The notes: generated by a model not told the origin, from the sequence alone. DNA of 64,000 nt from a virus (IMGVR_UViG_3300025030_000086:9158-73157); one strand, 5' to 3'; positions 26,001 to 44,314 are shown, counted from the first letter of the stretch. Program-made: numbers and translations.

Positions 26001-26072
26001 TGAGCTACCTACTTCAGATACCAAAATTGAGATACCAATTTAGGATGAGCTACCTACTTCAGATACCAATTT
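26001..26072 (+). repeat. direct repeat TGAGCTACCTACTTCAGATACCAA x2 with extra AGATACCAA
   Basis: Copies at 26001 and 26046. Confidence 0.9.
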
Positions 26073-26084
26073 TAATAAAAATAT

Positions 26085-26112
26085 TTGACAATTAATAAAA
26101 TTAAGATATACT
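26085..26112 (+). promoter_or_regulatory. early sigma70-type promoter
   Basis: TTGACA-16-TATACT; near-identical to 26481. Confidence 0.75.
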
Positions 26113-26148
26113 GATAATTAGAATATAATAATAATAGGAGATATCAGC

Positions 26149-26475
26149 ATGAAAAATCTTACAAAGAAAACCACAAAAGAACATTATGAAAAGTTTAGAG
26201 ATATGGCAATTGGAGCAGAGATAACATTAAAAAGATTGCCAAAACCTTTGGGTTATTCTGTAGAAGAGTTGAGAAAACTATATATAGAAGATAATAATCT
26301 AAACAATATACCATTAATTGAATTGGACAGTTTTTACTTGTGTTTACCATCATATACAAGGAAAATTATAACTAATATGGCAGATAATTGTTGCGTATAC
26401 AAACATTTATTAATTTATGAAGTTTTAGGAGCTACACCTATTTTTACAGATATCCCCCTTAATTTGAGGGATTAA
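26149..26475 (+). CDS. hypothetical protein
   Basis: AGGAG RBS, own promoter. Confidence 0.65.
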   Translation: MKNLTKKTTKEHYEKFRDMAIGAEITLKRLPKPLGYSVEELRKLYIEDNNLNNIPLIELDSFYLCLPSYTRKIITNMADNCCVYKHLLIYEVLGATPIFTDIPLNLRD

Positions 26476-26480
26476 AATAT

Positions 26481-26508
26481 TTGACAATTAATAAAATTCA
26501 TATATACT
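26481..26508 (+). promoter_or_regulatory. early sigma70-type promoter
   Basis: TTGACA-16-TATACT. Confidence 0.75.
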
Positions 26509-26529
26509 AATAATAAAGGAGAACATAAA

Positions 26530-27096
26530 ATGGAAACAATAAGAGAAGAGATTTATAAAAATTATACTATAAAGATTGTAGTAGATGATAGGCCCCTTGA
26601 TCCTATAGAAGAGTTTGATAGTTTTGGAAAGATGGTATGTTTCCATAAGTGGTATAGTTTAGGTCATAAGCATAATCTTAGAAGTGGTGATTTTGATTCT
26701 TTGGAAGATGTTAAAAATTATTTAATAAAAGAGGAGAAAGCCTATATTATCCTTCCCCTTTATTTATACGATCATTCAGGAATTACAATAAGCACAACCC
26801 CCTTTAATTGTATGTTTGACAGTGGACAGATAGGTTTTATTTATGCCACAAAAGAACAGATATTAAAGGAATATGGGGTTAAAAGGATAACCCCTAAAAT
26901 CAGAAAGAAAGTGGAAAAACTTCTCATAGCTGAAGTTGACACTTATGACAAATATTTAACAGGGGAAGTCTACGGTTTCCAGATATTGAAGGATGGGGAT
27001 ATTGAAGATAGTTGTTACGGATATTATGACACCCCTAAAAATATTATGTCTGAATGTAAGTTGAGAATAGATGAATATGAGGAACAATTTATTTAA
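26530..27096 (+). CDS. conserved phage/ICE hypothetical protein
   Basis: LPLYLYDHSGITIST.PF..FDSGQIGFIY..YLTGEVYG..DSCYGYY. Confidence 0.75.
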   Translation: METIREEIYKNYTIKIVVDDRPLDPIEEFDSFGKMVCFHKWYSLGHKHNLRSGDFDSLEDVKNYLIKEEKAYIILPLYLYDHSGITISTTPFNCMFDSGQIGFIYATKEQILKEYGVKRITPKIRKKVEKLLIAEVDTYDKYLTGEVYGFQILKDGDIEDSCYGYYDTPKNIMSECKLRIDEYEEQFI

Positions 27097-27112
27097 AAAA
27101 GGAGAACTATAA

Positions 27113-27295
27113 ATGAAAACATTTTCTATCGAAAAGCAAAATGAGTTAGGTAAAGAGATTGCTTTAATTCTCTGCTTGAAGAAAAATAAAAATGAAAAAT
27201 ATGTCACAATGTGGGGAGAGAAAACGGCAATTGGTTTATTAAATTTAGTTTGCAGAATTGTTAAAAGTATAGAAATTATGGGGGGAGAACTATAA
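27113..27295 (+). CDS. hypothetical protein
   Basis: AGGAG RBS; Y.T.WG.KT..GL motif. Confidence 0.6.
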   Translation: MKTFSIEKQNELGKEIALILCLKKNKNEKYVTMWGEKTAIGLLNLVCRIVKSIEIMGGEL

Positions 27296-27919
27296 ATGAA
27301 AACAAGTCTATATGAAAGGAAAATTGCATATAATAATATAAAAGGCAATGAACTTTTAAAAAGGGCCATAGAAGTATCTTTAACTGGACAGCATACCATA
27401 ACTGTTATTGGCAATGTTGATAATGGAAAAGAATATTTAGATATTGTATTTAAGTCAAGAACAGAATATTGTGGAGAAGACCCCATATTTAATGAAAATT
27501 TATTTACTTTTGTACAACCTTGTTTTTGCGGTAATTTTGGTGATGAGGGTTGTGGTTGTTCAGTAGAAGAGATTATATTACATAAAAGATCAAAGGAATA
27601 TATAAATGCTATGAAAAGTCAAATAATTGTTAAATTAGAAAGACCCCTATTTAATGAGATTGTTAGTGTATTAACAGGAGAATCTTTCCAAAACGTTGTG
27701 GACAGGATATATACATTTAATAGGTTAAAAACAATTGAAGGAACTGATCAAGACGCAATGGAATTTTTAAAAACTGCATATAATAAATTGTTGTTTACAG
27801 GTAATCAAATAAATAGAGTTTTGGCAGTTTCAAGAACAATTGCAATAATGGATAATTCTGGTAGAGTTAAAGCTCATCATATAGCAGAAGCTATACAATA
27901 TCAAGCATTAGATTATTAA
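27296..27919 (+). CDS. truncated ComM/YifB (Mg-chelatase-like) protein
   Basis: KRAIEV..GQHT..IG..NGK, PCFCG..CGCS, RVLAVSRTIA..HIAEAIQY. Confidence 0.75.
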   Translation: MKTSLYERKIAYNNIKGNELLKRAIEVSLTGQHTITVIGNVDNGKEYLDIVFKSRTEYCGEDPIFNENLFTFVQPCFCGNFGDEGCGCSVEEIILHKRSKEYINAMKSQIIVKLERPLFNEIVSVLTGESFQNVVDRIYTFNRLKTIEGTDQDAMEFLKTAYNKLLFTGNQINRVLAVSRTIAIMDNSGRVKAHHIAEAIQYQALDY

Positions 27920-28087
27920 GAGGAGGTTAACTAAAAATGAATATTTGTACAAATAATAAACATGGTGAAATAGTTTACGATAGTGGTTATAGGTATTGCC
28001 CCGCTTGTGAAAGAATAGAAAAATTGTTAAGTGATATAAAGGATGCAGAAATGGAACTAAAAAATTTAATAGAAAAAGAGGGGGGGT

Positions 28088-28627
28088 TTGAAAATGAATA
28101 AGAAATTAAGTGATGCAGTAATAACAGAATTGTCATTTTTAACAAGTAAAGAAATGAGAAATATTTTACAGAAGTTTGCTGATAATTTTGACAATTCTCA
28201 TTTTGAAATGTTACGACACATTGCAAAGACCTACACTGATGAACAAATAACCCCCTTGCTACCTACACCCCAAAAAGTTAAATCAAAGGATAAACGGACA
28301 AGGGAAGAAAAATTGGAAGAGTTAAAGGGGTATTATGTCAAAGAAAATATAGATGAAACAAGAGTAACTACAAATGATATACCTATTTTAAAAAGAGGTA
28401 GATCAAAAAGCAAGGATGGTACTTTGAAAGATAGAGTATTTGAATTATTGGATATGAATTTGAGAACGGAGGAGCATGCTGATAATGTAGATACTAATTT
28501 AACTTATGATAATATTCTAAAGTCCGGTATACTGAATATTGCAGAAAATACTTATAAGGTAATTTTATCAGCATGGAGGAAAGAAAAAGGGATTAAGGTA
28601 AGAAGAGGAAGACCTTCTAAAAATTAA
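28088..28627 (+). CDS. hypothetical DNA-binding protein with AT-hook-like motifs
   Basis: KRGRSK and C-terminal RRGRPSK. Confidence 0.55.
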   Translation: MKMNKKLSDAVITELSFLTSKEMRNILQKFADNFDNSHFEMLRHIAKTYTDEQITPLLPTPQKVKSKDKRTREEKLEELKGYYVKENIDETRVTTNDIPILKRGRSKSKDGTLKDRVFELLDMNLRTEEHADNVDTNLTYDNILKSGILNIAENTYKVILSAWRKEKGIKVRRGRPSKN

Positions 28628-28640
28628 TATACTTTAATTA

Positions 28641-28680
28641 TTGACATTACTCAAAATAGTAGTATACTAATAATTAAAGG
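28641..28680 (+). promoter_or_regulatory. repeated early promoter plus RBS cassette
   Basis: TTGACATTACTCAAAATAGTAGTATACTAATAATTAAAGG; near-identical at 33380 and 36674. Confidence 0.8.
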
Positions 28681-28991
28681 GGGATTATAAAATGGAAAGA
28701 TACTTAGAAAATGGAGATATGGTATTTGCAACAGGTGTTTTTTTGAGATACTTTAATGGAAAATTTGAAGTGTCAAGTTTTAAAGATGATACTTATTTTG
28801 ACGGTAACATTGTTGAAGATATTGAAAATAAACCTTATACAGAAGAGGAATAAAGGGGGATTATATGCTTTATTATGGTATTATAATTGGTTCATTTATC
28901 ATTTTTTATGCAGTTTTTATTTATAGTTTATGCAAAATTTCAAAAGATTGTGATATGAGGGCAGATAAATTATTTAAAGAAATGAGGATGA

Positions 28992-29270
28992 ATGAAAACA
29001 AAAGTGATTTATAGGAAATTTAAAACAACTGAAAGTATTGTTGCAATTTTTCCAGAATTGGGATACCCTGGATTTACTTCTAAAAAAGGTCTTATAATGG
29101 ATTATATGTATTTTGGCCAACACGGAGAATGTATTTATGACACCATTATAAAAATGACTATAAAAGCGTCTCCTAAAAATTATGAGGTATTGGAAGCACA
29201 ATTGAGAGATTTAGGATATGATTTAGAAATTACTACACATAAGGGGTATCAAAAATTATTGACAAAGTAA
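28992..29270 (+). CDS. conserved phage hypothetical protein
   Basis: KVIYRKF..IVAIFPE..Y..GQHG motif. Confidence 0.7.
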   Translation: MKTKVIYRKFKTTESIVAIFPELGYPGFTSKKGLIMDYMYFGQHGECIYDTIIKMTIKASPKNYEVLEAQLRDLGYDLEITTHKGYQKLLTK

Positions 29271-29579
29271 TAATCATAGGAGATTATGAAATGTTTTATA
29301 AAAGTATAGGATTGTCAAAAGTCTTATTAAGACATAATGAAAACTATATTACCCCATTTCAGTCCATTGCAGAAGAGGAGATACTTGATAGATATTGGTT
29401 CAATAGGTTTAGTTATGAAAGTTTCAAGGCATGAAAACATGGTTTGGTGTAGAGTTTAAAGGTTTTTATGTTGGTAAAGTCTATTGTAATAAGCAAGACC
29501 TTATTAATGAATTCAATAAACAATTCATGTATGAGATACAAGGGAATTTGTTTAAGGTTTTTGGAAAAATTGGAAAAAG

Positions 29580-31268
29580 ATGAAAACAATCCATATTAAA
29601 GATAATGTATTAATAATAAAGATACCGTATGATATTAATCTTGTATCATTAATCAAGACTTTCTTTTCCGGTAGGTCATGGGATAGCAATTTAAAAGTCT
29701 GGAAGTGCCCTGTAAATGAAAAGAATTTAATAGCTACCTACTCCATGATAGAAAATCATGACTTTACTGTATTTCCTGAAATGATGATTGAACTCGAAAA
29801 ATATAAAGGACAATTTGAAATACAGAAGGTTGAAAATGAAAAGAAGATAGCAGCCTCAAAAGCTATAGATGCAAATATTGAGATACCTAATTTGAAGGGA
29901 GAACTCTTCCCGTTTCAAAAAGCAGGAGTGCAATTCATAGAAAATACCAATGGTAAAACCTTAATAGCTGATGAAATGGGGTTAGGGAAGACCTTGCAAT
30001 CAATAGCTTATTGCCAATTACATGCAGAAAAAAGACCTATTTTAGTTATTTGTCCAGCAACATTAAAGTTGAATTGGCAAAGAGAATTTAGAAAATGGAC
30101 AAATATAAAAAGCTATGTTATAAATTCGCAAGATCTCAAATATCAGCTACCTATCTATGAAGCATACATTATTAATTATGATATAGTGGGGAAAATGGAA
30201 ACATTGCTGAATAAGATGAAATTTCAAGTAATGATATTGGATGAAGCACATTATTTGAAAAACCCAAAAGCATTACGGTCAAAAGCAATAAATGGATTAA
30301 ATAAGAATATACCCCATATTTTGGCATTAACTGGTACACCAATACTTAATAGACCTGTTGAAATATTTAATATTTTAAAGATGTTAAGTCCTCAAAATTT
30401 TGGCAATTATTTTGATTTTGTGAAAAGATATTGTGGAGCTACCTATGGAAAATGGGGTCTGGATGTATCAGGAGCTACCAATATTCAAGAATTAAGTGAT
30501 AAATTACGAGCAACAGTAATGATCAGAAGGGAAAAAAAGGATGTATTGGCAGAATTACCAGACAAGACAAGGGTAGTAGTCCCTCAAATATGTGATTTAA
30601 AAGCATACAAAAAAGTAGAGGATGATTTAATAAATTACTTAATTGAATCAAAGAATAAGTCAAAACTTGCAGCGGAAAAAATTAGTCAAGTAGAACAATT
30701 GGCAAAAGTTGAATATGCAAAACAGGAAGCGGTTAAAGCAAAACTCCCCCTATTTATTGAATGGAGTAAAGATTTTATTGAGGAAAATGGTAAATTAGTA
30801 ATTTTTGCTCATCATAAAGAATTTGTTGAAAAGTTAATGTTTGAACTGAAGGACTATAATCCGGTTAAAATAGTGGGTGGTATGGAAATTGAGGATAAAC
30901 AATCCTCAATAGATGCTTTCCAAAATAATAAAGAATGTAAAGTAATTATTTGTAGTCTAAAAGCCGCTGGTGTTGGGATAACTTTAGTTGCAAGTAGTTA
31001 TGTAGCATTTTTAGAGTTAGGATGGACACCCGGTGAACATGATCAGGCTGAAGATAGACTACACCGGATAGGGCAGAAAGATAATGTTACTTGTTATTAT
31101 TTTTTGGCAGAAAATACTATTGAGGAAACAATTTACGATCTACTTCAGAAAAAAAGAGATATTTTTCAAAAACTAATGCAAGATCAACATACAATTATAG
31201 GAACTCTTGATAATAATATTCTGAATGATTTAACAAATAAAATAGTAAATAAAAATGAAGTTAATTAG
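29580..31268 (+). CDS. SNF2/SWI2-family (HARP/SMARCAL1-like) helicase
   Basis: LIADEMGLGKT, ILDEAH, LTGTPILN, QAEDRLHRIGQ. Confidence 0.92.
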   Translation: MKTIHIKDNVLIIKIPYDINLVSLIKTFFSGRSWDSNLKVWKCPVNEKNLIATYSMIENHDFTVFPEMMIELEKYKGQFEIQKVENEKKIAASKAIDANIEIPNLKGELFPFQKAGVQFIENTNGKTLIADEMGLGKTLQSIAYCQLHAEKRPILVICPATLKLNWQREFRKWTNIKSYVINSQDLKYQLPIYEAYIINYDIVGKMETLLNKMKFQVMILDEAHYLKNPKALRSKAINGLNKNIPHILALTGTPILNRPVEIFNILKMLSPQNFGNYFDFVKRYCGATYGKWGLDVSGATNIQELSDKLRATVMIRREKKDVLAELPDKTRVVVPQICDLKAYKKVEDDLINYLIESKNKSKLAAEKISQVEQLAKVEYAKQEAVKAKLPLFIEWSKDFIEENGKLVIFAHHKEFVEKLMFELKDYNPVKIVGGMEIEDKQSSIDAFQNNKECKVIICSLKAAGVGITLVASSYVAFLELGWTPGEHDQAEDRLHRIGQKDNVTCYYFLAENTIEETIYDLLQKKRDIFQKLMQDQHTIIGTLDNNILNDLTNKIVNKNEVN

Positions 31269-31824
31269 AAAATTGGGGACAAGAATAAGTAAAAGTGGTC
31301 GGTTAGTAAGTTATGGTATATATCTTTGTCCATTTCCAGAATGTTTAGCAGAAGTTGAAAGACCTTTGGGTAATGGGGAAAGAAAAAAGTCTTGTGGGTG
31401 TAGAAGAAAAAAGGGGAATAGCTATACAAGATTATATAAAATTTGGACAGGTGTTAAAAATAGATGTTTTAATTCCAACAATCAAGCATATTTAGACTAT
31501 GGTGGAAGAGGAATAACAATATGTCCAGAATGGACAAATGATTATACTACTTTCAGAGATTGGGCATTAAATAATGGTTATCAAGAAAACTTAGTTATTG
31601 ATAGGATTAATCCTGATGGTAATTATGAACCCTCTAATTGTAGATGGTTAACAATATTAGAAAGTTTGAGAAATAAGACAAATACAATAACTATGGAAAT
31701 AGCTAATGAAATTAGAGATTTGTATAAAACAAAAAATTTTACTCAACAAGAAATAGCTGATAAATTTAATGTAAGTCAAGAAACAGTGTCTTTAATTATA
31801 AATAATAAGCAATGGATAAAATAA
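31255..31824 (+). CDS. HNH-type homing endonuclease (Zn-ribbon, YGGRGI, HTH)
   Basis: Same motifs as 2064. Confidence 0.85.
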   Translation: MKLIRKLGTRISKSGRLVSYGIYLCPFPECLAEVERPLGNGERKKSCGCRRKKGNSYTRLYKIWTGVKNRCFNSNNQAYLDYGGRGITICPEWTNDYTTFRDWALNNGYQENLVIDRINPDGNYEPSNCRWLTILESLRNKTNTITMEIANEIRDLYKTKNFTQQEIADKFNVSQETVSLIINNKQWIK

Positions 31825-32319
31825 ATGACAATTAATAAATTAATAAATAATATATTCAGGGATAGGAAAAGGGTAGCAAAGAAGATTAAAAATCACAAAA
31901 GTGAGCTACCTATTTTTGAAAAAAATGTGAAGAGGATGTTCAAAACTATAAAATACACAAAGTCAATTGATACTATGATAAAAAACTTCGATAATATTAA
32001 GCAAGAATTTCAAAACGTGATGAGCTACCTACCCCCTGATATAGAATTGGAATTGAATGGGCAGGTAATAAAAGATATTAATAGTATTGATACTATTAGA
32101 GATACCTATATTAAAGATTTTATAAATGAAAGAATAGACATGGAGTTAGAAAAGGAAAAAATAGTAACTTCCATATTTTTAAAAGAAAATTTAATAAAAC
32201 GTGCTTTAAATAGAGCATTGATAGCATTTACATATTTTCCAAATGATGCAGAATTTGTTTGTAAAATTGCGGAGTTAGAGGAAATGTTATTAAATTGTTA
32301 TAATAAGGAGAACAAATAA
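31825..32319 (+). CDS. hypothetical protein
   Basis: 164-aa ORF; contains two TGAGCTACCTA motifs. Confidence 0.6.
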   Translation: MTINKLINNIFRDRKRVAKKIKNHKSELPIFEKNVKRMFKTIKYTKSIDTMIKNFDNIKQEFQNVMSYLPPDIELELNGQVIKDINSIDTIRDTYIKDFINERIDMELEKEKIVTSIFLKENLIKRALNRALIAFTYFPNDAEFVCKIAELEEMLLNCYNKENK

Positions 32320-32540
32320 TGAAGAAAAAAGGAAAAATATTTTTAAAGATATTTGATACAACAATTGATTTGTACAAAGAAATTGAGTTAGATGCAGATT
32401 ATATAAGATTTTATACACATGAAAATGATTATATAGATATTAAATTTAAAGGTTTTGATTTATCTCTTAGAGGAATAGGGCAATTAAAAGTATTCCCCAA
32501 TTCCTCAAATTCTATCATCATAGAACAGGAAGAACCATAA
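32319..32540 (+). CDS. hypothetical protein
   Basis: AGGAG RBS, coupled. Confidence 0.55.
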   Translation: MKKKGKIFLKIFDTTIDLYKEIELDADYIRFYTHENDYIDIKFKGFDLSLRGIGQLKVFPNSSNSIIIEQEEP

Positions 32541-32704
32541 TGAGTAAAGAATTAGAACAAGCCATTGAATTACATACAAAACTGGATAAAAATTGGGGAT
32601 TAGAATCACCCAATAATTCCTGGCCCCTTGATTTAATTATTTATTATAATAATAGAAAGGAGAAAGAAAATGAAAATTCATGTGGATCTGAAAAAGGGGA
32701 TTGA
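32540..32704 (+). CDS. small hypothetical protein (paralog of 38298-38468)
   Basis: ELEQAIELHTKLDK..WP; below the ORF-track cutoff. Confidence 0.5.
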   Translation: MSKELEQAIELHTKLDKNWGLESPNNSWPLDLIIYYNNRKEKENENSCGSEKGD

Positions 32705-32924
32705 GAATATTTCAATAATTATAATGATACTTGATACAGAGGATAAAACATTAGCAAATAAATTATTTAGATCCCCTTTAGATTATCCCTCAAATAAAGA
32801 TTATGTCTATGTAGAAAATGTGGGTAATTGTGATTATATAGAAAACATTTTTAGAACTGAAGAAGGGGCTAAGAGTTGGGCAGAATTTGAAATAAAATGT
32901 TTAAAAAATAAATTATGCATATAA
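32670..32924 (+). CDS. hypothetical protein
   Basis: AGGAG RBS. Confidence 0.55.
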   Translation: MKIHVDLKKGIENISIIIMILDTEDKTLANKLFRSPLDYPSNKDYVYVENVGNCDYIENIFRTEEGAKSWAEFEIKCLKNKLCI

Positions 32925-32948
32925 CAATTAATTAAAGGGGTTTCAATA

Positions 32949-33383
32949 ATGAACAAAAGAAATTACAAACATGGGGAATCCTATGTAAGGTTACATAATA
33001 TATGGGGATTAATGAAACAAAGAATTTTAAATCCTAATAGTAAAAATTATAAATATTATGGTGGTAGAGGAATAACAATATGTCCAGAATGGACAAATGA
33101 TTATATTGTTTTCAGAGATTGGGCACTAAATAATGGTTATAAAGAAGGATTACAAATACACAGAGAAAATGATGGGAATTACGAACCAGATAGTTGTAGA
33201 TGGGTAACAAGAACTGAAAATTTAAGACACACAAGAAAAACTATAACTATGGAAATTGCTGATGAAATTAGAGATTTGTACAAAACAGGGAATTTTTCCA
33301 TGCAAGAGTTAGGAAATAAATATAGCATAAGTAAACAAATGGTATCTTACATTTTGAATAATAAAAATTGGAAAAATGTTTGA
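32949..33383 (+). CDS. HNH-type homing endonuclease lacking the N-terminal Zn-ribbon
   Basis: KHGES..YYGGRGITICPEW..GNYEPDSCRW..HTH. Confidence 0.8.
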   Translation: MNKRNYKHGESYVRLHNIWGLMKQRILNPNSKNYKYYGGRGITICPEWTNDYIVFRDWALNNGYKEGLQIHRENDGNYEPDSCRWVTRTENLRHTRKTITMEIADEIRDLYKTGNFSMQELGNKYSISKQMVSYILNNKNWKNV

Positions 33384-33420
33384 CATTACCAAAAATAGTA
33401 GTATACTAATAATTAAAGGA
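33380..33420 (+). promoter_or_regulatory. repeated early promoter plus RBS cassette
   Basis: TTGACA-16-TATACTAATAATTAAAGGA. Confidence 0.8.
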
Positions 33421-33556
33421 GATATATGACTAAGGAAAGTATAAAGGTTCAATGCCAAGAATGTGAAAAGGTTTTTAGAACAAAAAAATTAGTTCCTGAA
33501 TGCCCGGAATGTAATGGATTAGATATTGATTTATATTATGGAAAGGAGAACAAGTA

Positions 33557-34528
33557 ATGTCACATAATCTTAACATGAATGAAGAAGGCAAGGCAGATAT
33601 GATGTATACAGGGGAGACCCCTTGGCACAAATTAGGTACATATTTGGGGGAAAATGCGGTAACGGCAGAAGAAGCAATTAAGGCTGCAAATATGGAATGG
33701 GAAGTATCTCTTCATCCAATTTATTCCGGCTTTGCAGAAATGAAGGAAGTTGATGATTTTAAAGCAGTTATTAGACAAGATACAGGAGAAGTTTTGGGTA
33801 TAAGGAAGCAAAAATATACACCGTATCAGAATAAAGATGCTTTCAAGGTATTAGATCCATTTATAGGAGAAGGAAAAGCGGTTTGGCATACAGCAGGAGT
33901 TTTAGGAAAAGGTGAAAGAATATGGATATTGGCAAAACTACCCGGACAATTAGAAGTAACAAAAAATGATATAATAGACAAGTATTTTCTATTAACAAAT
34001 TCCCATGATGGTTCAACAGGAATAAAGTTAATGTTTACCCCTATAAGGGTTGTTTGTCAAAATACGTTACAAATGGCATTAATAAGTGGACAATCTTCAA
34101 TTATGAATATAAAGCATACCAAAAACCATGAAATAAAGATAAAACAAGCATTGAAGGTTTTAGGTCTTGTTGAGCAAATAGCTACAGATTTTGAAATTGA
34201 TGCTAAGAAAATGTATGAATTTAAGATGACTGATGCAGATATTGATAATTATTTAGCAGAAATTATTAATATAACAGGAGAAGCAAAGGAAAAGACTAAA
34301 CTATATGCAGATAAATCTTATATTAGATACAGAGATTATTTGGAAGGTGGGATAGGGACAGACATAGCAGGTGTAAAAGGCAGTCTATGGGGGGCTTATA
34401 ATGCGGTAACAGAAGCTATTGATCATACTGATAGAAAGATTAAAAATCATTTGCAGTATAGTCAATTTGGTGCTGGTGCTGTTATCAAGGACAAGGCTTG
34501 GAAGAGTGCAAAAAAATTGATAAGATAG
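33557..34528 (+). CDS. DUF932/DUF945 family protein
   Basis: PWHKLG, Y.PYQN, TAG.L..G, NSHDGS, TPIRVVCQNT, GSLWGAYNAVTE. Confidence 0.9.
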   Translation: MSHNLNMNEEGKADMMYTGETPWHKLGTYLGENAVTAEEAIKAANMEWEVSLHPIYSGFAEMKEVDDFKAVIRQDTGEVLGIRKQKYTPYQNKDAFKVLDPFIGEGKAVWHTAGVLGKGERIWILAKLPGQLEVTKNDIIDKYFLLTNSHDGSTGIKLMFTPIRVVCQNTLQMALISGQSSIMNIKHTKNHEIKIKQALKVLGLVEQIATDFEIDAKKMYEFKMTDADIDNYLAEIINITGEAKEKTKLYADKSYIRYRDYLEGGIGTDIAGVKGSLWGAYNAVTEAIDHTDRKIKNHLQYSQFGAGAVIKDKAWKSAKKLIR

Positions 34529-34536
34529 GGGGTTTA

Positions 34537-34905: not shown

Positions 34906-34906
34906 A

Positions 34907-36673: not shown

Positions 36674-36711
36674 TTGACATATCCAAAAATAGTAGTATAC
36701 TAATAATTAAA
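36674..36711 (+). promoter_or_regulatory. repeated early promoter
   Basis: TTGACATATCCAAAAATAGTAGTATACTAATAATTAAA. Confidence 0.8.
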
Positions 36712-36807
36712 TGAATTTTTCAAATTTTGTGGTTCCCCAGGTTCAGGTAGTGAGCTTGTTTTTAATTTAAAAGGTAAATTTTTAAGTCAATCATTTTATG
36801 AATAATT

Positions 36808-37257
36808 ATGAAAACAATAACTTATCATAATTTATCTCAAAACACTAACGGTAGATTGGTTTATTTCAGGTCAACAGATATTGAACAAATGAATTGGCAT
36901 AGACTATTATGGTCTATTCCTGATGAAATGTTATATCATTTATCTCAGGGAAAACAGATAAGAATTATTGATAAAACGTCTTCTAAAAAGGGGGGTAAAA
37001 TTAAAAGGATTTTTATTCCTATAATGAATGATTTATTAAATAATTTATATTTTGATATACCTGCTAAGAATAAAAATTTAGTAAATCATTATCTATATGC
37101 TTTGGAGACTATGAAGAAGGATAAAAGTTTATTAACAAAATTTTTGTATTGGAGAGGGATAATATTTAATCTTGTTAATATAATAGGAGAAGATATTATT
37201 GTTGATAAAGAACCTAATCCGTTAAGGCCAAAGAAGTATTTGAAACTTCTGGAGTAA
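36808..37257 (+). CDS. hypothetical protein
   Basis: 149-aa ORF. Confidence 0.6.
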   Translation: MKTITYHNLSQNTNGRLVYFRSTDIEQMNWHRLLWSIPDEMLYHLSQGKQIRIIDKTSSKKGGKIKRIFIPIMNDLLNNLYFDIPAKNKNLVNHYLYALETMKKDKSLLTKFLYWRGIIFNLVNIIGEDIIVDKEPNPLRPKKYLKLLE

Positions 37258-37267
37258 GGAGAAATAG

Positions 37268-37528
37268 ATGTCATTTGAAATGGAAAAAATTAGAGGCTTA
37301 AAAGTTATAGCTTTGAAAGGTGGGGGATACAGGGATAAAAGGTTTAAAGATATTGAAGTTAAATATATTTTGTTTTCAGATAAAAGAACTTATATTGAAT
37401 TAGAAGAACAGGATTATTATACATTTCATGATTTTTCATCTTATGCAAGATATGTTAATATTCATAGTAATGAAGAGGAATGGAAAAGAATTTTTAAACT
37501 TGATGATGCTAATGAGGATATTTGTTAG
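37268..37528 (+). CDS. hypothetical protein
   Basis: AGGAG RBS. Confidence 0.6.
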   Translation: MSFEMEKIRGLKVIALKGGGYRDKRFKDIEVKYILFSDKRTYIELEEQDYYTFHDFSSYARYVNIHSNEEEWKRIFKLDDANEDIC

Positions 37529-37737
37529 GGGGTTACTTAAATGAAAAATGTAAATCTTGTATTAAGTGTTATTTTAAATTATGAAACTAAAAAAGGTAAT
37601 AAAGAAGTATGCCATGAGATAGAGGTCTATCTTGGTAATGTACCTGAAACATACATAGATGTGGAAGAAGTGGTAAAACTTATTAAACAAAATATAAAAA
37701 TAAATGTAAAGGAAGTTGAAATTTATGGAGATTAAAG

Positions 37738-38301
37738 ATGTCAAAGAATGAGCGGGACAAATATTTATTGAAAGAGGAGTATAAGAAATTTATTGAAAAT
37801 ACTCCTGAACAATATAAACTATTTTGGAAAATTGTGTTTCATTCTGGTCTTAGGATATCTGAAGGATTGAATCTAACAGTTAATGACATATTATGGAATG
37901 AGAATAAATTATTAATTGCTACATTGAAGCGTAAAGGTCATCCCATCATTCCTATAATAATTTCAAAAGACTTAATAGATGAATTGAAAATATATATAAA
38001 AGAATCTGGAAGAATGTGGAAGAATCCGGCAATTAATGGAAGAATCTGGAAGTATAGTAGACAATATGCATGGAGAATATTCAAGTCTATTTGCATAAAA
38101 GCGGAATTAAACCCAAAGTATAGCCCTCATGCTCTACGTCATTCTCATGGTGTTATGATAGCAGATATAACAAACGGTAATATGGTTGAGATTAAAAATA
38201 GATTAAGACATTCATCTATAAAATCAACTGAATTCTATGTTCATTGTTCTGAAGCCAAACAAAAGGAATTATCCAATAAAATAGAGGAGTATATGAAATG
38301 A
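37738..38301 (+). CDS. short tyrosine recombinase (catalytic domain only)
   Basis: SGLRISE, LKRK, HALRHS, RLRHSSIKSTEFY: R-K-H-R-H-Y residues all present. Confidence 0.9.
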   Translation: MSKNERDKYLLKEEYKKFIENTPEQYKLFWKIVFHSGLRISEGLNLTVNDILWNENKLLIATLKRKGHPIIPIIISKDLIDELKIYIKESGRMWKNPAINGRIWKYSRQYAWRIFKSICIKAELNPKYSPHALRHSHGVMIADITNGNMVEIKNRLRHSSIKSTEFYVHCSEAKQKELSNKIEEYMK

Positions 38302-38468
38302 AAAATCAATATAAAGCTGAATTAAAACAAGCTATAGAATTTCACTTAAAAATGGATAAACAATCGGGAAGAGCAGATAAAAAAGCATGGCCCCCTTGGT
38401 TATTAGGAATTTATGAAGAAGGGAATTATAATGAAGATAATATAAATAATAAAAAGGAGATATTATAA
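38298..38468 (+). CDS. small hypothetical protein (paralog of 32540-32704)
   Basis: ELKQAIEFHLKMDK..WP; GAGGAG RBS. Confidence 0.5.
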   Translation: MKNQYKAELKQAIEFHLKMDKQSGRADKKAWPPWLLGIYEEGNYNEDNINNKKEIL

Positions 38469-38866
38469 TGTGTTTGTATAATGTGGATAATTCAATAAAG
38501 GACAAAGATTTTGGTTACAAAATAATAAGCAAAGATGGTAGAGCAAGGTTTTTAAAGAGTAAAAAGTTAACTGAAGGAAAATGGTTAAATGAATATAATT
38601 ATAGACAAGATTATTATAAAAAAGAAAACTACTTGTTTTTAGAATCAGAGTCATATTATGATAAATTAGCATATTTGATGGGGTGGCATGTTTTTTACAC
38701 CAAAAAAGAGGCAATGAGTTATAATAAATATATATTACGTGACCCTACTATTAAAATTGTAAAAGTTGGGATTAAAAATATAGTGGCAAAGGGTTATCAA
38801 TGTACGCAACATTCATATAGGACAATTGTTTGTAAATACATAAAAATAGAAAAGGAGATGAAATGA
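38468..38866 (+). CDS. hypothetical protein
   Basis: MCL..GYKI..GWHVF pattern, AGGAG RBS. Confidence 0.6.
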   Translation: MCLYNVDNSIKDKDFGYKIISKDGRARFLKSKKLTEGKWLNEYNYRQDYYKKENYLFLESESYYDKLAYLMGWHVFYTKKEAMSYNKYILRDPTIKIVKVGIKNIVAKGYQCTQHSYRTIVCKYIKIEKEMK

Positions 38867-39072
38867 TAATAAGAACAGATGAAGGTGACAGGATAATATT
38901 AAATGAGGAAGTAAATCTTTACAGTTTAGATGAACGTATTAAAACGACAAACAGTGTAAAAATTAATGGTAAAACCATGACCGTTGATGAGTTTAAGAAA
39001 GGAAAAATAGATCCAAAAAAAGGTCATTGGGGTCGAAAAGCTATGAATGAGATGGATAATGATTTAATCTAA
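38863..39072 (+). CDS. hypothetical protein (last + strand gene)
   Basis: AGGAG RBS; converges with the - strand arm. Confidence 0.55.
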   Translation: MIIRTDEGDRIILNEEVNLYSLDERIKTTNSVKINGKTMTVDEFKKGKIDPKKGHWGRKAMNEMDNDLI

Positions 39073-39257
39073 ATCAGCATCTATCACAAGATTTGCCCAT
39101 AAGCAAAGGTCTTTTATTAATCTATTTCTTTTATCATATGGTATTTCGTAGTCATTAAATATCAATATTAATTCTTCCTGAAGTACATCATTTATTTTAG
39201 ATTTTATGGCTTGTTTAATTTCATTTCTTTTTATATTATCCATTTTATCTCCATTTA

Positions 39258-39390
39258 CCACAATATATGGTATGTTACAATATGAAACACAAGATGTTGT
39301 GTACTTTACTATTTATATGATTATAAGTAAATATTTTAAAACCACAAAAGTGAGCTACCTATTTCAATATAAAAATCCAGATACCAATTT
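39258..39390. promoter_or_regulatory. composite module: NrdR-like box pair, TGTTACA-N3-TGAAACA, TGAGCTACCTA, AGATACCAATTT
   Basis: Same motif set as 25822-26072. Confidence 0.6.
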
Positions 39391-39401
39391 AATGATGGAA
39401 T

Positions 39402-39776
39402 TTAACCCTTACTCTTATTAACTGGAAAATTTAACCATCCATTTTTACTAAATATATTAAATAATGCCAATGCTAATATATTGATTGATTTCTCCTCATC
39501 ATCACCCATAGATGAGAAAAGCCCCATTTCCAATTCACCATCAACAGCATGTAAAATTTCATGGAGTAATGTAATAAAAACATCCTCCAATGGCTTATTT
39601 TTATAATATATTCTTATAGTCCTGTCCCAAGGATCGTGTTGACCAACCAAACTTGCCCTTTTCTCCGCATCTACATCATTTGGTAGTTCATGATATGCAA
39701 TTGTGTAAGGAATACCAAGAAGCTCAAAATTTGTTGGCAGTTCAGAAACTTTGTAATTTTTTCCACTTTTAAACAT
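39402..39776 (-). CDS. HExxH metallopeptidase-like protein
   Basis: TLLHEILHAV...E. Confidence 0.65.
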   Translation of the reverse strand: MFKSGKNYKVSELPTNFELLGIPYTIAYHELPNDVDAEKRASLVGQHDPWDRTIRIYYKNKPLEDVFITLLHEILHAVDGELEMGLFSSMGDDEEKSINILALALFNIFSKNGWLNFPVNKSKG

Positions 39777-40004
39777 TTAGATACCCCCCTTATTTTTTAA
39801 ATTAGAGAATATTCCCCATAGAGAAAAAATAAAAAATATGAAGAAGAGAAAACTTTGTTGAATTTCCCCTATTTTATAATTATATATCATAAGAAATAAA
39901 TCGGTAAATGACCATAGATAAAATCCCCATAATAATTTATTTTTAATAATACATATTTTACCAATTAAGGAAAGAACGATTATACCCCATAAGAAATATC
40001 CCAT
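39777..40004 (-). CDS. small 3-TM membrane protein, PnuC-like half
   Basis: Hydrophobic; WGFYLW..D..Y..Q..WG pattern. Confidence 0.5.
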   Translation of the reverse strand: MGYFLWGIIVLSLIGKICIIKNKLLWGFYLWSFTDLFLMIYNYKIGEIQQSFLFFIFFIFSLWGIFSNLKNKGGI

Positions 40005-40156
40005 TTAAATATCCCAATAAAAAGTTATATCAAAAAATAACCATCCTAAATTATATACTCTGGAACAATCATGGTAAAAGGGAATTAAATACCATTTATG
40101 TAGTGGGAAAAATCCTATATTTAAAACAGGTCTGTAATATATTACATTTTTTTTCA

Positions 40157-40768
40157 TTATGCTATCTCCTTTGTTTCTGAAAACTTCCCATTATGGGTAA
40201 CAAAAAACACCTTATCAGCTTGTTCTGCTATTTCTGGTATTTGAGAAACTATTATAAATTGTATATTTAATTTTTTACTTAAATCTTTAATCATTTTCAT
40301 AGCATTTTCTGTTTTACCATGCAAAAACCGCATGGGTTCATCCAAAATCAATGTGTTTGTTGATTTAGGATTTTCTATGCTCCAAAGGACTACTCGTAAT
40401 GCAAAGGAGGCAACATCCAGTATACCACCCCCACAACTATCTTTTGGATCGGCTTCTTCCCCCCTTAATTTAAGACTAATTTTAGCTTCGGGTTTGTTAC
40501 GTTTAATGTCAAAATCTATAATAAATTGGTAGTCCTCCTCAAAAACTGCTTGTAATGCAGTAGTAACCATAGATTCTATGTAATCTTTTAAATAGGATTG
40601 GGTATGCTTTCCAGCTTCGGCTACTATAGCTCTTGCTTTTTGCAAATTTTCATTATATTCTTTTAATGAAACTTGCTCTTTTTCTTTTATTTCTAAAGAA
40701 GCAAGAGTTAGTTGACATTCAGTTTTGAAAGCAATAAACTTTGTTTTAAGTTGCTCTACTTTTTCCAT
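40157..40768 (-). CDS. sbcC: SbcC/Rad50-like ATPase, C-terminal half
   Basis: Signature-like SCGGG, FALR, Walker B LILDEP, IIVSQ..ADK. Confidence 0.8.
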   Translation of the reverse strand: MEKVEQLKTKFIAFKTECQLTLASLEIKEKEQVSLKEYNENLQKARAIVAEAGKHTQSYLKDYIESMVTTALQAVFEEDYQFIIDFDIKRNKPEAKISLKLRGEEADPKDSCGGGILDVASFALRVVLWSIENPKSTNTLILDEPMRFLHGKTENAMKMIKDLSKKLNIQFIIVSQIPEIAEQADKVFFVTHNGKFSETKEIA

Positions 40769-41182
40769 TCACCAACTCCAATCATCTTCTTGATTTTTAA
40801 GATTTTTACATTTCTTACATATTCTGTTGATTTTTGGATCTATGCTTTCAAATTTTTTTAAACAACATAAACATATAACAACTGTTAATAATATCTTATC
40901 TTTTGATTTTCTTCCCTGTGTTATTGGAAAAGATACTTTTTTCTTTATATTTAATCCAGCTTGCTCCAAGCAAGCATTCCAACTTAAATTAAAATTTTTG
41001 TTTATATGACTATAACTACAAACTTTATTACAATTATAGTCAAATTCATTTCTTGTCAAAAAGCAAGTTCCTGCAATATCTCTCAAATTTTCTATAAAAT
41101 CTGAAAATTTGATTACTGATGTACCATGCAGTTTCATATTTATTTTGATACTTCCCAATAAACTAAATAACAATTTTGGCAC
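40769..41182 (-). CDS. protein with homing-endonuclease-associated repeat and C4 Zn finger
   Basis: T..EF..S...I..F..SWN..LE.AGL; CLCC..F.S...NRICKKC. Confidence 0.55.
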   Translation of the reverse strand: MPKLLFSLLGSIKINMKLHGTSVIKFSDFIENLRDIAGTCFLTRNEFDYNCNKVCSYSHINKNFNLSWNACLEQAGLNIKKKVSFPITQGRKSKDKILLTVVICLCCLKKFESIDPKINRICKKCKNLKNQEDDWSW

Positions 41183-41318
41183 ATATGAACTTCTACCAAA
41201 TCAGAGCTATACCAAGTATCTGTGATAGTGATGAGTGGTCTTTTGTATAATGCTTCCAATAACAAAGGCTTGTGTCTATTAAATAGAATACATAATAATT
41301 TTTTAAACATAAAACCTC

Positions 41319-41573
41319 CTATATAAATCCAAATTTTTCTTTTAATTCTGTGTATTTACTTTCTATTGCAATTCCCAATGTTTCAACTTCCTTAGTTAAT
41401 TTTTGAACCGTCTGTTCAGCTTCTATAAAATTATCTAAATTATAATCTTTTTTTAGCGTGGATAATAAAGCCTTTTTTTGCCCCTTACTTTCAGCCAAAT
41501 CTTCTCGTGCCTTCTCAATCTTTAATTTAATCGCTTTAAGAGTTTTTTCCACTTCTTTTGTGTCTATAGGCAT
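41319..41573 (-). CDS. small coiled-coil protein
   Basis: Heptad-rich, 84 aa. Confidence 0.6.
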   Translation of the reverse strand: MPIDTKEVEKTLKAIKLKIEKAREDLAESKGQKKALLSTLKKDYNLDNFIEAEQTVQKLTKEVETLGIAIESKYTELKEKFGFI

Positions 41574-41659
41574 GTTACATATCCTTTCTGAAGAAAAATA
41601 ATGTTGTAAATATTATCAAAAATATAAAGACGTATGTGATTATAATAGCAATTAATTCA

Positions 41660-42124
41660 TTATCTGTCATCATCTCTATTCCTTTCCATATATTCTTGTG
41701 GGATAATAATCATAGATTTTTTATTTATTATTTTTACAGATTCTCTATGACCCAAAAAACAACTAAGGAATAAACCTATTTTTAATTTTGTATCTTCAAT
41801 ATCTATATTCAAGCAATACTTTGTATTCAATTCTTCTAAAAAATGTTCAATTTTTCTTGCAGTATTTGTCACTGTGTCAAGCAACTGTGGGTTATAATAT
41901 ATAGAAAAACCAAACATTTTTTCATCCATATGGTAAGTTTCCATAAATGTTGGATTTTGCACAGAATGAATAAAAATATGAGGCATTACTATATAATATT
42001 TAATAAGAATAGGAAATACTACTTTATTGGGATTAAATTCTTCTTCTTGTGAATAATCATTTTCTATAGTTATTTTTTCTTTATAATCTACAAGATATGG
42101 TTGATTGGTTATTGATGAATTCAT
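41660..42124 (-). CDS. hypothetical protein
   Basis: 154-aa coupled ORF. Confidence 0.55.
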   Translation of the reverse strand: MNSSITNQPYLVDYKEKITIENDYSQEEEFNPNKVVFPILIKYYIVMPHIFIHSVQNPTFMETYHMDEKMFGFSIYYNPQLLDTVTNTARKIEHFLEELNTKYCLNIDIEDTKLKIGLFLSCFLGHRESVKIINKKSMIIIPQEYMERNRDDDR

Positions 42125-43053
42125 TATTTTTCAATCTCCTCAAATGCCTTAATTATAATATTTTTAATATCATTTTCAGTTGATTTCATCATTAATTCAA
42201 GATTTTTTCTAAAATTTAAACTCTGTCCTATCTCATTGTTTTTTATACTATTTATAAATTCTTGCAATTTTTGATTCTCTTTTTTATCCACTCTTTCCAA
42301 TGCCTCCGGCTTAAATACCTCATCAGCGGGTTTATGAATTATTGGTAAATTAATTAATTCATATGTTAAATCTTCATCATTTATTTCTAACATATATATA
42401 TGAGGAATTAAATCAGATTCATTTAAGGTTTTTCTAACCAAACAACCACAATTCACAATTGTTTGGTTTTTATATTTATAAAATACTGGATGATGCCAAT
42501 CTCCACTTATAATTATATCATATGGATACTTTTTAGCAAGTTTATCTGATTGCAGAAAGTCCTCCATTCCTTTCCATACAGGCTTATCCAATATAGTTTT
42601 ATGAATTAATAATATATTGAAATTGTCTACATCTTCTATTATAGGAATTTCATCTCCATAATCACATCCATAAAGATCAATATTTCTACCAAAAGTTATA
42701 CGTTTGAAGGTCTGCATATAGCCTAAAGATTCCATTAATTTCAAGGCTGTTCTATCTTTAGTCCTAAATCTTTGATCATGCTGTCCCCAAACGGTTAAGA
42801 ATTGAATCTCATTATTATTGCCATTATTAATACTATATTTATTAAATAATTTTATATAATATTCCAATACGTCAAAAGACGGGCGGGGGTTATCGAAAAC
42901 GTCCCCTGGGCACAGGATATATTCACATCTATTTTTTGAAGCTATTTGAAATATCTGCTCAACCTTATTCAACTGAGTTTCAAAGAAATTATCTATCCTG
43001 TTTTCTGGATTAGAAGCTCTCAAATGTAAATCTCCGGTAATTAAAAATTTCAT
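42124..43053 (-). CDS. sbcD: SbcD/Mre11-like nuclease
   Basis: TGDLH, PGDVFD, WGQHD, SGDWH, NCG.L.R. Confidence 0.88.
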   Translation of the reverse strand: MKFLITGDLHLRASNPENRIDNFFETQLNKVEQIFQIASKNRCEYILCPGDVFDNPRPSFDVLEYYIKLFNKYSINNGNNNEIQFLTVWGQHDQRFRTKDRTALKLMESLGYMQTFKRITFGRNIDLYGCDYGDEIPIIEDVDNFNILLIHKTILDKPVWKGMEDFLQSDKLAKKYPYDIIISGDWHHPVFYKYKNQTIVNCGCLVRKTLNESDLIPHIYMLEINDEDLTYELINLPIIHKPADEVFKPEALERVDKKENQKLQEFINSIKNNEIGQSLNFRKNLELMMKSTENDIKNIIIKAFEEIEK

Positions 43054-43255
43054 TTATCTCATCCCCACATCAAAAGCTTGTATGGCCTTTTCCCAATCTA
43101 ACTCACATTTTATTTCAGTCCATCCATTTGCTATTTTATAATCTTCAGCTATTTTGTTAGCCTCTTCTTTATTTTGAGCTATAATTTTAATAGTATTAAT
43201 AAAATAAGTATTAATATAACCATCTGCTTTATAATATTTATACTTCTCCATATTG

Positions 43256-44314
43256 TTATACCCCCCTCTCACACAAAGGACATATACCTGCTTCTTCTAA
43301 GGTCTTCTTAAACTCTTTTTCCTCTTTTTCAATAAGTTTTTCCATCTTTTTTATAGTTTCAAAATATACATCCCAACTCTGTTTTAAATTATTTATTTTA
43401 TTTAGCACATCAGAAGTGGCTAAGTATTTTATAACATTACTCTCAAGCTCTGGCAAGCCCTCCCCCTGTTTTAAAATAGCCTCAGTTGCTTCAATATCAA
43501 CATCCAATATGGATAAACTTATTAATATTTTTTCTAAATCTCTTATTAAAGCTAAATTCGTGTTATAATCCAACCATAAATACTCCAATACTTTAATTTC
43601 ATCTTCAAGACCAACATATTTATTTTCTATGCTCTTTATAATATTTTCTGTCCTAATTCCTTCCGATACTATGTAGGTTAATAATTTAACTTTATTTTCT
43701 AATATTTTAACTTTAGTATCATATTCTACTATTTTATTTACTAAATTCTCAATTAAATCATAATCTTTGAACTTTTCAAGGCTTGTATTCAATTTATCTA
43801 AATCTTGTTTTTTTATCTCAAGTTCTTTATTTGTAGATGTTATTTTTGAAGATATGTTAGAAATCAAAGCGTCTATATCATCCAGCTTGACTATTTTATT
43901 AATTGTTCTGCCAACTTCTCCTGCACTATCCATCAAAAGGAAGTGTCTTTCAAACTGTGAGGCACAATTTATATCAGATATATTAATTGCAGAACTGATC
44001 TCTGAAGGAACATCATTGCCTATGGTATTAAATAATGAGCTACCTATTTGATATGAATTTATAGAATTGTTTCTTTCTCTTACAATTTCAGTATCATTAA
44101 TAATCAATGATACCTTGCAAGTTTCCTTTTTGTCACTAAAAGTGGATTTGAAAGCTAACCCTTGTGGTCTGTTAGTAATAATCCAATTCAAAGCTCTGAG
44201 AATAGCAGTTTTCCCATTATTGCTTTGACCAGATATTATATTTATTCCAGAGGAAAATTTTAAATAGGAATCTTTATGGCTCTGAAAATTTTGGAGTTTA
44301 ATGGATTGTATCAT
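43256..44314 (-). CDS. sbcC: SbcC/Rad50-like ATPase, N-terminal half ending at Zn hook
   Basis: NFQSH, Walker A GQSNNGKT, Q-loop, coiled coil, terminal CPLC. Confidence 0.85.
   Translation of the reverse strand: MIQSIKLQNFQSHKDSYLKFSSGINIISGQSNNGKTAILRALNWIITNRPQGLAFKSTFSDKKETCKVSLIINDTEIVRERNNSINSYQIGSSLFNTIGNDVPSEISSAINISDINCASQFERHFLLMDSAGEVGRTINKIVKLDDIDALISNISSKITSTNKELEIKKQDLDKLNTSLEKFKDYDLIENLVNKIVEYDTKVKILENKVKLLTYIVSEGIRTENIIKSIENKYVGLEDEIKVLEYLWLDYNTNLALIRDLEKILISLSILDVDIEATEAILKQGEGLPELESNVIKYLATSDVLNKINNLKQSWDVYFETIKKMEKLIEKEEKEFKKTLEEAGICPLCERGV

Follow-up and report, generated by a model that had tools for sequence, protein, structure and literature searches.

Arrays of oriented sites are rare in phage genomes and informative where they occur; it was through stoperators that repression of transcription elongation was revealed. 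The stoperators of Cluster A mycobacteriophages, read by repressors of the L5 gp71 type, are presented in the sections of the source used here as asymmetric sites of about 13-14 bp that are oriented, occur in many copies and lie within transcription units, and their repressor as a monomer of about 180 amino acids with two DNA-binding domains (PMC9283540). An array that recalls them is found in IMGVR_UViG_3300025030_000086:9158-73157, a stretch of 64,000 nucleotides from a virus (the window, whose coordinates are used throughout). A nine-base-pair word, AG[AC]TACC[AT]A, recurs there on one strand, inside and between the genes of what looks like an early-gene block. It is settled that the word is a conserved, oriented DNA-sequence signal, specific to one clade and tied to the early block. 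The clade itself appears to consist of uncultivated low-GC groundwater phages without a close sequenced relative.

Two other described systems are relevant. For phage tf, the excerpted part of the original report gives a 9-mer that is two-fold degenerate at two positions and whose 14 sites share a single strand; the transcription units of the genome converge, 11 of the 14 sites lie in one half of it, the sites are at least 1.5% of the genome apart, and relatives have sites at similar positions with a different main variant (PMC3517423). In the pre-early terminal repeat of phage T5, according to the portion of the source consulted, DNA injection stops at a long non-coding stretch packed with direct repeats and palindromes, which edges the first-expressed genes and is conserved in order among relatives; a few kb from it there is another repeat region related to it, and the two regions are mutually inverted and contain DnaA boxes (10.1101/866236).

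Like stoperators, the sites described here are numerous (16 copies of the 9-bp core, with an extended consensus of 14 bp), oriented and placed in transcription units, and, like the stoperator repressor, the candidate reader has 177-179 amino acids and two predicted DNA-binding-like domains. Unlike stoperators, which are found at promoters and in short gaps genome-wide, 8 of the 16 copies are in genes, and the array covers about 18 kb of a 73-kb record and includes tandem clusters. Its orientation also fails to follow transcription, the + strand being kept among leftward genes, and the phage, in contrast to stoperator phages, shows no sign of lysogeny. With the tf nick sites, as far as the excerpt describes them, it shares a 9-mer with two degenerate positions, the use of one strand, an uneven spread, conserved positions and a shifting main variant; it departs from them in having two conserved stations in non-coding DNA, here named clusters A and B, where 2-5 tandem copies follow one another with starts 12-45 bp apart. 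The likeness to the T5 injection-stop region, on the same partial basis, lies in a repeat-rich non-coding edge of the early block with conserved order and a second related station. Unlike those of T5, clusters A and B are direct, DnaA boxes are unclustered, and depth is not doubled: summed contig depth in four runs has no step at 26.0 or 39.4 kb, contigs being a poor measure of this. A long terminal repeat of T5 or SPO1 type spanning A to B was rejected on the same weak negative. In T5, phiKMV and tf the words confined to one strand are marks of nicks, and to our knowledge the purpose of nicks of the T5 type has been unclear since the 1960s. The combination found here is unusual: absolute polarity, selection within genes, two homogenised stations, a minimal recombinase and a clade-specific DNA-binding-like protein.

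An exact search of the window recovered nine copies of AGCTACCTA on the + strand and none on the - strand, compared with a mean of 0.31 and a maximum of 2 in 100 dinucleotide-preserving shuffles. Six of the nine belong to the 11-mer TGAGCTACCTA, whose observed-to-expected ratio ranks second among the 11-mers with at least five occurrences in the record; the first is a Shine-Dalgarno/start word. A second word, AGATACCAA, occurs at 26016, 26030, 26061 and 39379, again on the + strand only. Both are variants of the family AG[AC]TACC[AT]A, which has 16 copies on the + strand and 1 on the - strand in the whole record of 73,157 bp. This record is classed as linear and about 51% complete, so that whole-genome counts mean the record only. 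Fifteen of the + copies lie in 26000-39400, one (44038) in 39400-45000 and none in the remainder, and variants with one mismatch are at background level on both strands (22 + and 17 -). Chance or coding bias as the source of the motif is excluded. An earlier sequence-only reading of the window had reported the nine copies, all on the + strand, the second motif at its four positions, 22 identical bp shared by the copies at 31902 and 39351 (CACAAAAGTGAGCTACCTATTT) and a copy antisense in sbcC. Each of these was recovered in its place, and the polarity and enrichment that it described hold when k-mers are counted on both strands against a shuffled background.

A profile of the SNF2 helicase, whose gene contains five of the copies, recovered ten metagenome loci with SNF2 proteins 61-91% identical. 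The window and the loci with 85-91% identity cannot be counted as independent cases; those at 61-80% (L084, L085, L086, L087, L088 and L090) are much more independent. Together the ten loci (84.5 kb) contain 66 family copies, every one of them in the sense orientation of SNF2. The counts are 22 + and 20 - in 149 distant loci (1.81 Mb, SNF2 at most 46% identical), so that the natural background is about one copy in 80-90 kb on each strand. Since the motif is polar in the ten related loci and at an unpolarised background in the 149 distant ones, the system belongs to one clade. The dominant variant in L088 is AGATACCAA. In the 22.9-kb record behind this locus all 11 forward copies fall within the first 11.6 kb and a single reverse copy is at 18.1 kb; in G001, an incomplete record, no + strand copy comes after 11.6 kb, which leaves its last 11 kb without one. 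Copies in the opposing gene arm keep their strand both in the window (39353, 39379 and 44038) and in L088 (7705-11605), where those deeper in the - arm, at 8734, 9180 and 11605, are on the same DNA strand and antisense to the genes. The early block keeps its position in every relative, including those with no more than 61% SNF2 identity.

The copies inside genes bear signs of selection on the DNA itself. When synonymous codons were shuffled within each SNF2 gene of the ten relatives, the 1-5 copies observed compared with shuffle means of 0.07-0.59 (P at most 0.012 in nine of the ten; L086, with one copy, has P = 0.14). The coding sequences of the block have 8 copies, against a mean of 0.44 and a largest value of 4 in 2000 synonymous shuffles. 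The copies use rare codons (ACC, 11% of Thr; CTA, 9% of Leu; AGC, 6% of Ser) and other uncommon ones (TAC, 17% of Tyr; GAG, 22% of Glu). The site at nt 302 of SNF2, ATT GAG ATA CC[T/A] A, is identical in all ten relatives though the following amino acid varies, and one codon is kept in all ten at just 28 of the 190 SNF2 columns with a conserved degenerate amino acid. The motif can also be seen to arise and move: in L090 and L085 AAT TAC TTA has become AGC TAC CTA, an Asn-to-Ser change together with a synonymous TTA-to-CTA change, and the SNF2 site read as ATY shifts by five codons, yielding an ATYSLATY repeat. A C/A polymorphism at 32025 coincides with the degenerate third position of the motif. 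When the diverged intergenic regions around A and B are aligned, the longest blocks free of any change are copies of the motif.

The copies are read in each of the three frames (SELP, SYL and RDTY in the open reading frame (ORF) at 31825; ATY, EIP and QLP in SNF2), and protein coding therefore does not explain the motif. It is the motif that seems to shape the protein sequence, if anything, and these comparisons point to a word kept by selection in one orientation, in and around the early block. The sequence-only reading had likewise argued from different frames within genes that protein sequence is not the cause, and the excess over synonymous shuffles agrees with it. It had also looked to the retention of in-gene copies at synonymous positions in relatives, which is found for the site at 29881, kept in ten of ten, while other sites turn over. 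Its broader claim of a directional cis-signal is borne out by polarity in 11 genomes or loci, by the excess over shuffles and by synonymous retention; the analogues that it named fit unevenly.

The phage has a GC content of about 28% and two opposed gene arms. The + arm (2064-39072) has the terminase first and ends in a block of small ORFs, the SNF2 helicase, three HNH endonuclease paralogues, a DUF932 protein and a short tyrosine recombinase; the - arm contains SbcCD-like, UvsX-like, SSB, family-A polymerase and DnaB-like genes. Five promoter-like sites of the form TTGACA-N16-TATACT are present, all on the + strand (26085, 26481, 28641, 33380 and 36674), and are numbered here in that order; a looser pattern has 8 matches in the record, only these five meeting the N16-TATACT consensus. 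Upstream, the inverted repeat I1 (25528-25571) reads as a hairpin with a T-run and closes the preceding operon. With five promoter-like sites inside it and a terminator-like hairpin upstream, the motif territory is set apart as a transcription unit of its own, and it looks like a separately promoted early-gene block. A terminator scan found no terminator-like site near cluster B.

When 51 sites, drawn from six genomes, are combined in a logo, the core lengthens to T[GC]AG[AC]TACC[AT]A[C/T/A]TT, about 14 bp, with an A-rich stretch at -8 to -4. The degenerate positions take A or C and A or T, and the flanks are A- and T-tracts. Shine-Dalgarno contexts (AGGAGATACCTA), found at 5 of the 56 sites collected for the logo, may be incidental. 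Cluster A (Table 1), which in the window includes the 45-bp direct repeat D3 and ends 16 bp before the -35 element of promoter 1, is present in five of the five loci that reach it, with 2-5 copies whose starts are 12-36 bp apart, at 16-33 bp from the -35 element. Very AT-rich DNA follows it. Cluster B, also present in five of the five loci that reach it, consists of two copies, whose starts differ by 26, 36 or 43 bp. It is placed between two genes of the - strand, 39402-39776 and 39064-39252, and some 280 bp beyond the last gene that reads rightwards; the latter of the two, a conserved gene of 62 amino acids, lies to its left and keeps B off the exact junction of the arms. The interval from A to B is 7-15 kb among loci, and across relatives there are in-gene copies in the 5' part of SNF2.

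The two stations are joined by a direct repeat of 61 bp and about 80% identity in the window, 50 bp in L090, 100 bp and 92% in L088, and 29 of 30 bp in L087. The A/B spacers are more alike within one genome than between genomes, from which we infer that A and B have been homogenised. Upstream of A, 630 bp are non-coding and hold a 31-bp repeat three times, a 42-bp repeat three times and a 29-nt promoter-like unit twice with a spacing of 90 bp, in an order that relatives keep.

Table 1. Positions of the motif clusters, outlying copies and associated genes in the window
Feature	Position	Strand	Remarks
Cluster A, five tandem copies (26003, 26016, 26030, 26048, 26061)	26001..26069	+	starts 13-18 bp apart
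Cluster B, copies 39353 and 39379; B-side arm of the A/B repeat	39338..39395	+	starts 26 bp apart
A-side arm of the A/B direct repeat	25988..26048	+	61 bp, ~80% identical to 39338-39395
Repeat-rich non-coding region upstream of A	25522..26000	.	hairpin 25528-25571 and three repeat families
First of five TTGACA-N16-TATACT promoter-like sites	26085..26112	+	pattern match
Candidate reader, protein of 177-179 amino acids	28088..28627	+	clade-specific; SAP-like N-terminal, winged-helix-like C-terminal
SNF2 helicase gene, in-gene copies 29732, 29881, 30145, 30437, 30473	29580..31268	+	29881 conserved 10/10
Clade-specific ORF of 164 amino acids, in-gene copies 31904, 32023, 32100	31825..32319	+	motif match
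Tyrosine recombinase, 187 amino acids, catalytic domain only	37738..38301	+	PF00589, 1.2e-18, residues 9-172
Outlying copy, full 14-bp consensus	44036..44049	+	antisense in SbcC-like ORF 43256-44314 (-)
Sole - strand copy, AGCTACCAA	46109..46117	-	fits background rate

Some details of the repeats may be added here. The 42-bp units (within 25570-25813) follow a 59-nt register in which a fourth unit starts at 25799; each carries a small TGCC...GGCA palindrome, and in relatives units of other sequence have a palindrome of the same style at the same position. The promoter-like unit, TTG[CT]AA-N17-TATAGT and then ATACCATATATAGT, is found in 2-5 copies before A (25842-25960), and one related copy precedes B (39255-39300); the right half of the unit is similar to the extended motif (TGCAAAAATGA...). 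On the upstream side of A, three related contigs come to an end at a distance of 230-380 nt. These ends were considered as genome ends and rejected as assembly breaks, because they are located inside 30-45-bp tandem repeats. The motif was also rejected as a promoter: it has no -10/-35 elements at fixed spacing, and B faces opposing genes.

We favour a motif that acts as duplex DNA rather than as RNA. Degeneracy between A and C and between A and T, with A- and T-tract flanks, would suit readout in the grooves of the duplex with arms in the minor groove, and on the way to the first strong promoter cluster A comes before it and after a terminator-like hairpin. Among DNA mechanisms an array of binding sites fits best, because tandem stations stand at both edges of the unit and single copies inside it. 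Our tentative preference, one that may well prove wrong, is that the copies are oriented binding sites of a clade-specific DNA-binding protein and act as polar barriers in the manner of stoperators. Their reader is predicted to be a phage-encoded, sequence-specific protein that binds head to tail as a monomer, the product of 28088-28627 being the best candidate. There would be two multi-copy stations, A before the first strong early promoter and B about 280 bp past the last early gene, and the putative array would be completed by single copies, some of them within genes and others no deeper than 4-5 kb in the opposing arm. The sites might serve as orientation-dependent barriers or insulators for a machine running rightwards through the block, most likely the host RNA polymerase coming from the early promoters. 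Early transcription could in this way be confined and later shut off, as by mycobacteriophage stoperators, and any read-through past B, which would be antisense to the opposing arm, could be stopped by the copies beyond B as a fail-safe. Such barriers would resemble the polar terminator sites upstream and downstream of rRNA genes.

The 28088-28627 product is found in five of the five close loci that cover the region and in none of the 149 distant loci, and its family has 36 members in 5.8 billion proteins. It has two invariant RGR arms around a helical domain. A structure model (pLDDT 74) suggests a SAP-like N-terminal part (Z 6.9-7.2) and a winged-helix-like C-terminal part (Z 4.5-5.5); since these values are below the tool's reliable level, the likeness is a lead rather than a fold assignment. 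A repressor of the L5 gp71 type is absent from the PDB matches of its profile (E at most 10) and from 50 fold matches. The ESM Atlas gave no usable lead for this protein or for the 31825 protein. The other candidate, the recombinase, is universal in the clade at 176-191 amino acids and is without an N-terminal DNA-binding domain; its residues R39, K64, H131, R134, H158 and Y167 are invariant in 24 sequences. Its family has 58 matches, of which 57 are at least 60% identical and 110-191 amino acids long and the last is 29% identical. A predicted complex of the recombinase with the 28088 protein scored 0.02, which speaks neither for nor against the pairing. Of the readers suggested by the sequence-only reading, the 28088 protein and the short recombinase are still good candidates, and nothing points to SNF2 or the 31825 protein. 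HNH endonucleases were rejected as readers, given that L082, L084 and L088 carry the motif without HNH genes.

Several observations speak against polar barriers. The first site is more than 3 kb downstream of promoters 1 and 2 rather than promoter-proximal, and there is no site between promoters 4/5 and B. Cluster A is upstream of promoter 1 and so cannot block transcripts from it, and the distance between the two varies from 16 to 33 bp among relatives. The 8 of 16 copies in genes are unlike most stoperators, and the copies in the leftward arm are unflipped, a departure from the stoperator rule unless read-through in the rightward direction is what they act on. The stoperator analogy of the sequence-only reading accordingly holds for asymmetry, orientation and location in transcription units, and is weakened by the unflipped copies of the opposing arm and by the half of the copies in genes. 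As for the reader, all fold matches of the 28088 protein fall below the tool's reliable Z, and a Foldseek search of its model against PDB returned nothing at E at most 0.001. Finally, a pure barrier model leaves the homogenisation of A and B and the adjacent recombinase unaccounted for.

The strongest rival, which we regard as possible though doubtful, is that the copies are strand-specific cleavage sites, either nicks of the type known from T5, phiKMV-like phages and tf or swivel sites like those of a type IB topoisomerase. The cutter would be the catalytic-domain-only recombinase or another nickase acting on the motif strand only, and the 28088 protein might target it. The parallel with tf is close: a 9-mer with two degenerate positions, 16 copies to 1 between the strands, a convergent layout with unflipped copies, some positions conserved (SNF2) and a dominant variant that shifts to AGATACCAA in L088. 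Placement on one strand would avoid double-strand breaks, and the whole clade possesses a recombinase whose R, K, H, R, H and Y residues do not vary. Cutting at tandem copies with starts 12-18 bp apart, however, would release short oligonucleotides, and no such sites are listed for tf in the part of the report drawn on. Near-cognate words are not depleted (22 + and 17 - with one mismatch), and the motif is limited to about 18 kb. Tyrosine recombinases, moreover, leave a 3'-phosphotyrosyl link, unlike the ligatable nicks of tf, which counts against this explanation.

Rather unlikely is a role of A and B as att- or res-like sites of the short tyrosine recombinase, by which the early block would be excised or circularised or replication multimers resolved, the scattered copies being accessory or vestigial binding sites. 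As in such systems, the gene of a recombinase with complete catalytic residues adjoins one of two homogenised direct repeats that flank the block. It lies inside the block, 0.55-1.4 kb upstream of B in five of the five loci that cover it, and its family is tightly conserved (57 of 58 at 60% identity or more). The direct repeats, more alike within a genome than the same regions are between genomes, point the same way. Unlike att or res systems, the recombinase has no N-terminal DNA-binding domain, and the words themselves are direct rather than inverted arms around a crossover region of 6-8 bp; small palindromes do occur in the vicinity. The position of the block is fixed in all relatives to 61% SNF2 identity, with no sign of mobility, and no A-to-B junction was seen among 15 of 44 joints (contigs only). 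The in-gene copies under selection would have no role, and homologous recombination alone could homogenise A and B.

An unlikely further reading is a two-part DNA enzyme, specific for site and strand, in which the catalytic-domain recombinase, aimed by the SAP/winged-helix/RGR protein at the oriented 14-bp sites, would nick or swivel one strand. Such an enzyme could relax torsional stress at the two boundaries of an early block under heavy transcription or lay T5-type nicks, with A and B as its main stations.

Equally hard to credit is that the copies are iterons of a replication origin and of a second cis-replication region, bound by a phage initiator, for which lambda ori, SPP1 oriL/oriR and P4 ori/crr offer parallels. 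An origin would be in keeping with the tandem copies at A, where 630 bp of non-coding DNA also contain three more families of repeats and very AT-rich DNA comes next, with the second, similar cluster 7-15 kb away and with the conserved layout of the upstream region. Selected in-gene copies over 18 kb would be atypical of one, however, no initiator gene was recognised beside A, and the replication genes are in the other arm. DnaA-box-like 9-mers (TTATCCACA, at most one mismatch) number 42 in the window on both strands against 26.7 expected; they are mostly on the - strand within the + arm and are not clustered at A or B.

An RNA element, in which the word would be bound or cut in early transcripts, for example in mRNA decay or translation control, would make strand polarity automatic, and 15 of the 16 copies are indeed in the sense strand of the rightward block. 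Copies just past B could sit in read-through RNA, and head-to-tail spacing of 12-14 nt suits single-strand binders. We nevertheless consider it quite improbable. Cluster A is upstream of promoter 1 and after a terminator-like hairpin, the A/T and A/C degeneracy and the A/T tracts would fit duplex DNA better, and those copies that are 4-5 kb deep in the opposing arm run antisense to its genes. No RNA fold was found around B (z-score 0.35), and no Rfam family matched the motif; the only Rfam match in a search for tRNAs and known RNA families near it was SNORD25, which scored below its gathering threshold and lies elsewhere, at 24410-24492.

A Chi- or KOPS-like guide, read by the host's RecBCD or AddAB, an FtsK-like pump, the phage SNF2 protein or the terminase, is very unlikely: the word is short, over-represented and absolutely polar whatever the local gene direction, and a tyrosine recombinase is nearby, as XerCD accompanies KOPS, but it is local (+ copies all within 26003-44046 of 73 kb, with about 55 kb of that record and the last 11 kb of G001, both incomplete, free of it), it forms tandem clusters needless for a guide word, and it is specific to one clade rather than common to unrelated phages. 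The sequence-only reading had named Chi and KOPS among its analogues; both are spread replicon-wide, whereas this motif is confined to about 18 kb. The iteron, RNA and Chi/KOPS explanations each account for fewer features than the others.

If the sites are polar barriers, the phage would combine stoperator-like logic with a lytic-looking life style and would have an insulated early-gene domain. If they are cleavage sites, a minimal recombinase would be linked to the nicking of phage DNA. Either outcome involves a defined 14-bp site and two small proteins, and could be tested in vitro without a culture of the host.

Searches beyond the related loci returned little. GenBank phages include no close relative; by DNA the HNH gene alone was matched, and the DNA polymerase is at most 28% identical. 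Among viral contigs, neither an exact search for the motif pair nor a search with the single SNF2 protein gave a match. In a collection of genomes and metagenome-assembled genomes the recombinase profile had 0 matches and SNF2 relatives were at most 42% identical, with no hint of the host. At least one of the motif strings occurs in 539 papers; the 20 listed concern unrelated subjects and none is on phage.

Several features of the neighbouring genes were noted in passing. In some relatives the SNF2 helicase gene has been invaded by inteins: some close homologues (P0012-P0014) are 850-921 amino acids long and carry intein and HNH Pfam domains. Distant homologues bear source names of the SMARCAL1-like type, and the conserved N-terminal 90 or so residues (29580-29870; IKIPYD...W..P) are perhaps a HARP-like annealing-helicase module. 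The SbcC-like ATPase is seemingly split into a 352-residue N-terminal ORF (43256-44314, -) and a 203-residue ATPase ORF (40157-40768, -), with SbcD (42124-43053) and small ORFs between them. A single tRNA-Gln (anticodon TTG; 1854-1928, -) lies where the two arms diverge, far from the motif.

The commonest ribosome-binding word in the record is AGGGGGT / GGGGGTTGAAATG, not GGAGG, and supplies the most over-represented 8- to 11-mers. The three paralogous HNH homing-endonuclease genes of the early block (31255-31824, 32949-33383 and 35123-35737) each contain a small hairpin, TGTCCATTCTGGACA, on the - strand. Related loci have 0 or 1 HNH gene, at other places, and metagenome contigs join the HNH paralogues. 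Another word, CCACAAGATT, has seven copies in genes of both arms (for example at 4347, 35262, 57373, 59427 and 63985), with similar flanks that end in CTTCTTG about 40 nt on, and possibly marks a second repeated gene family, maybe of endonucleases.

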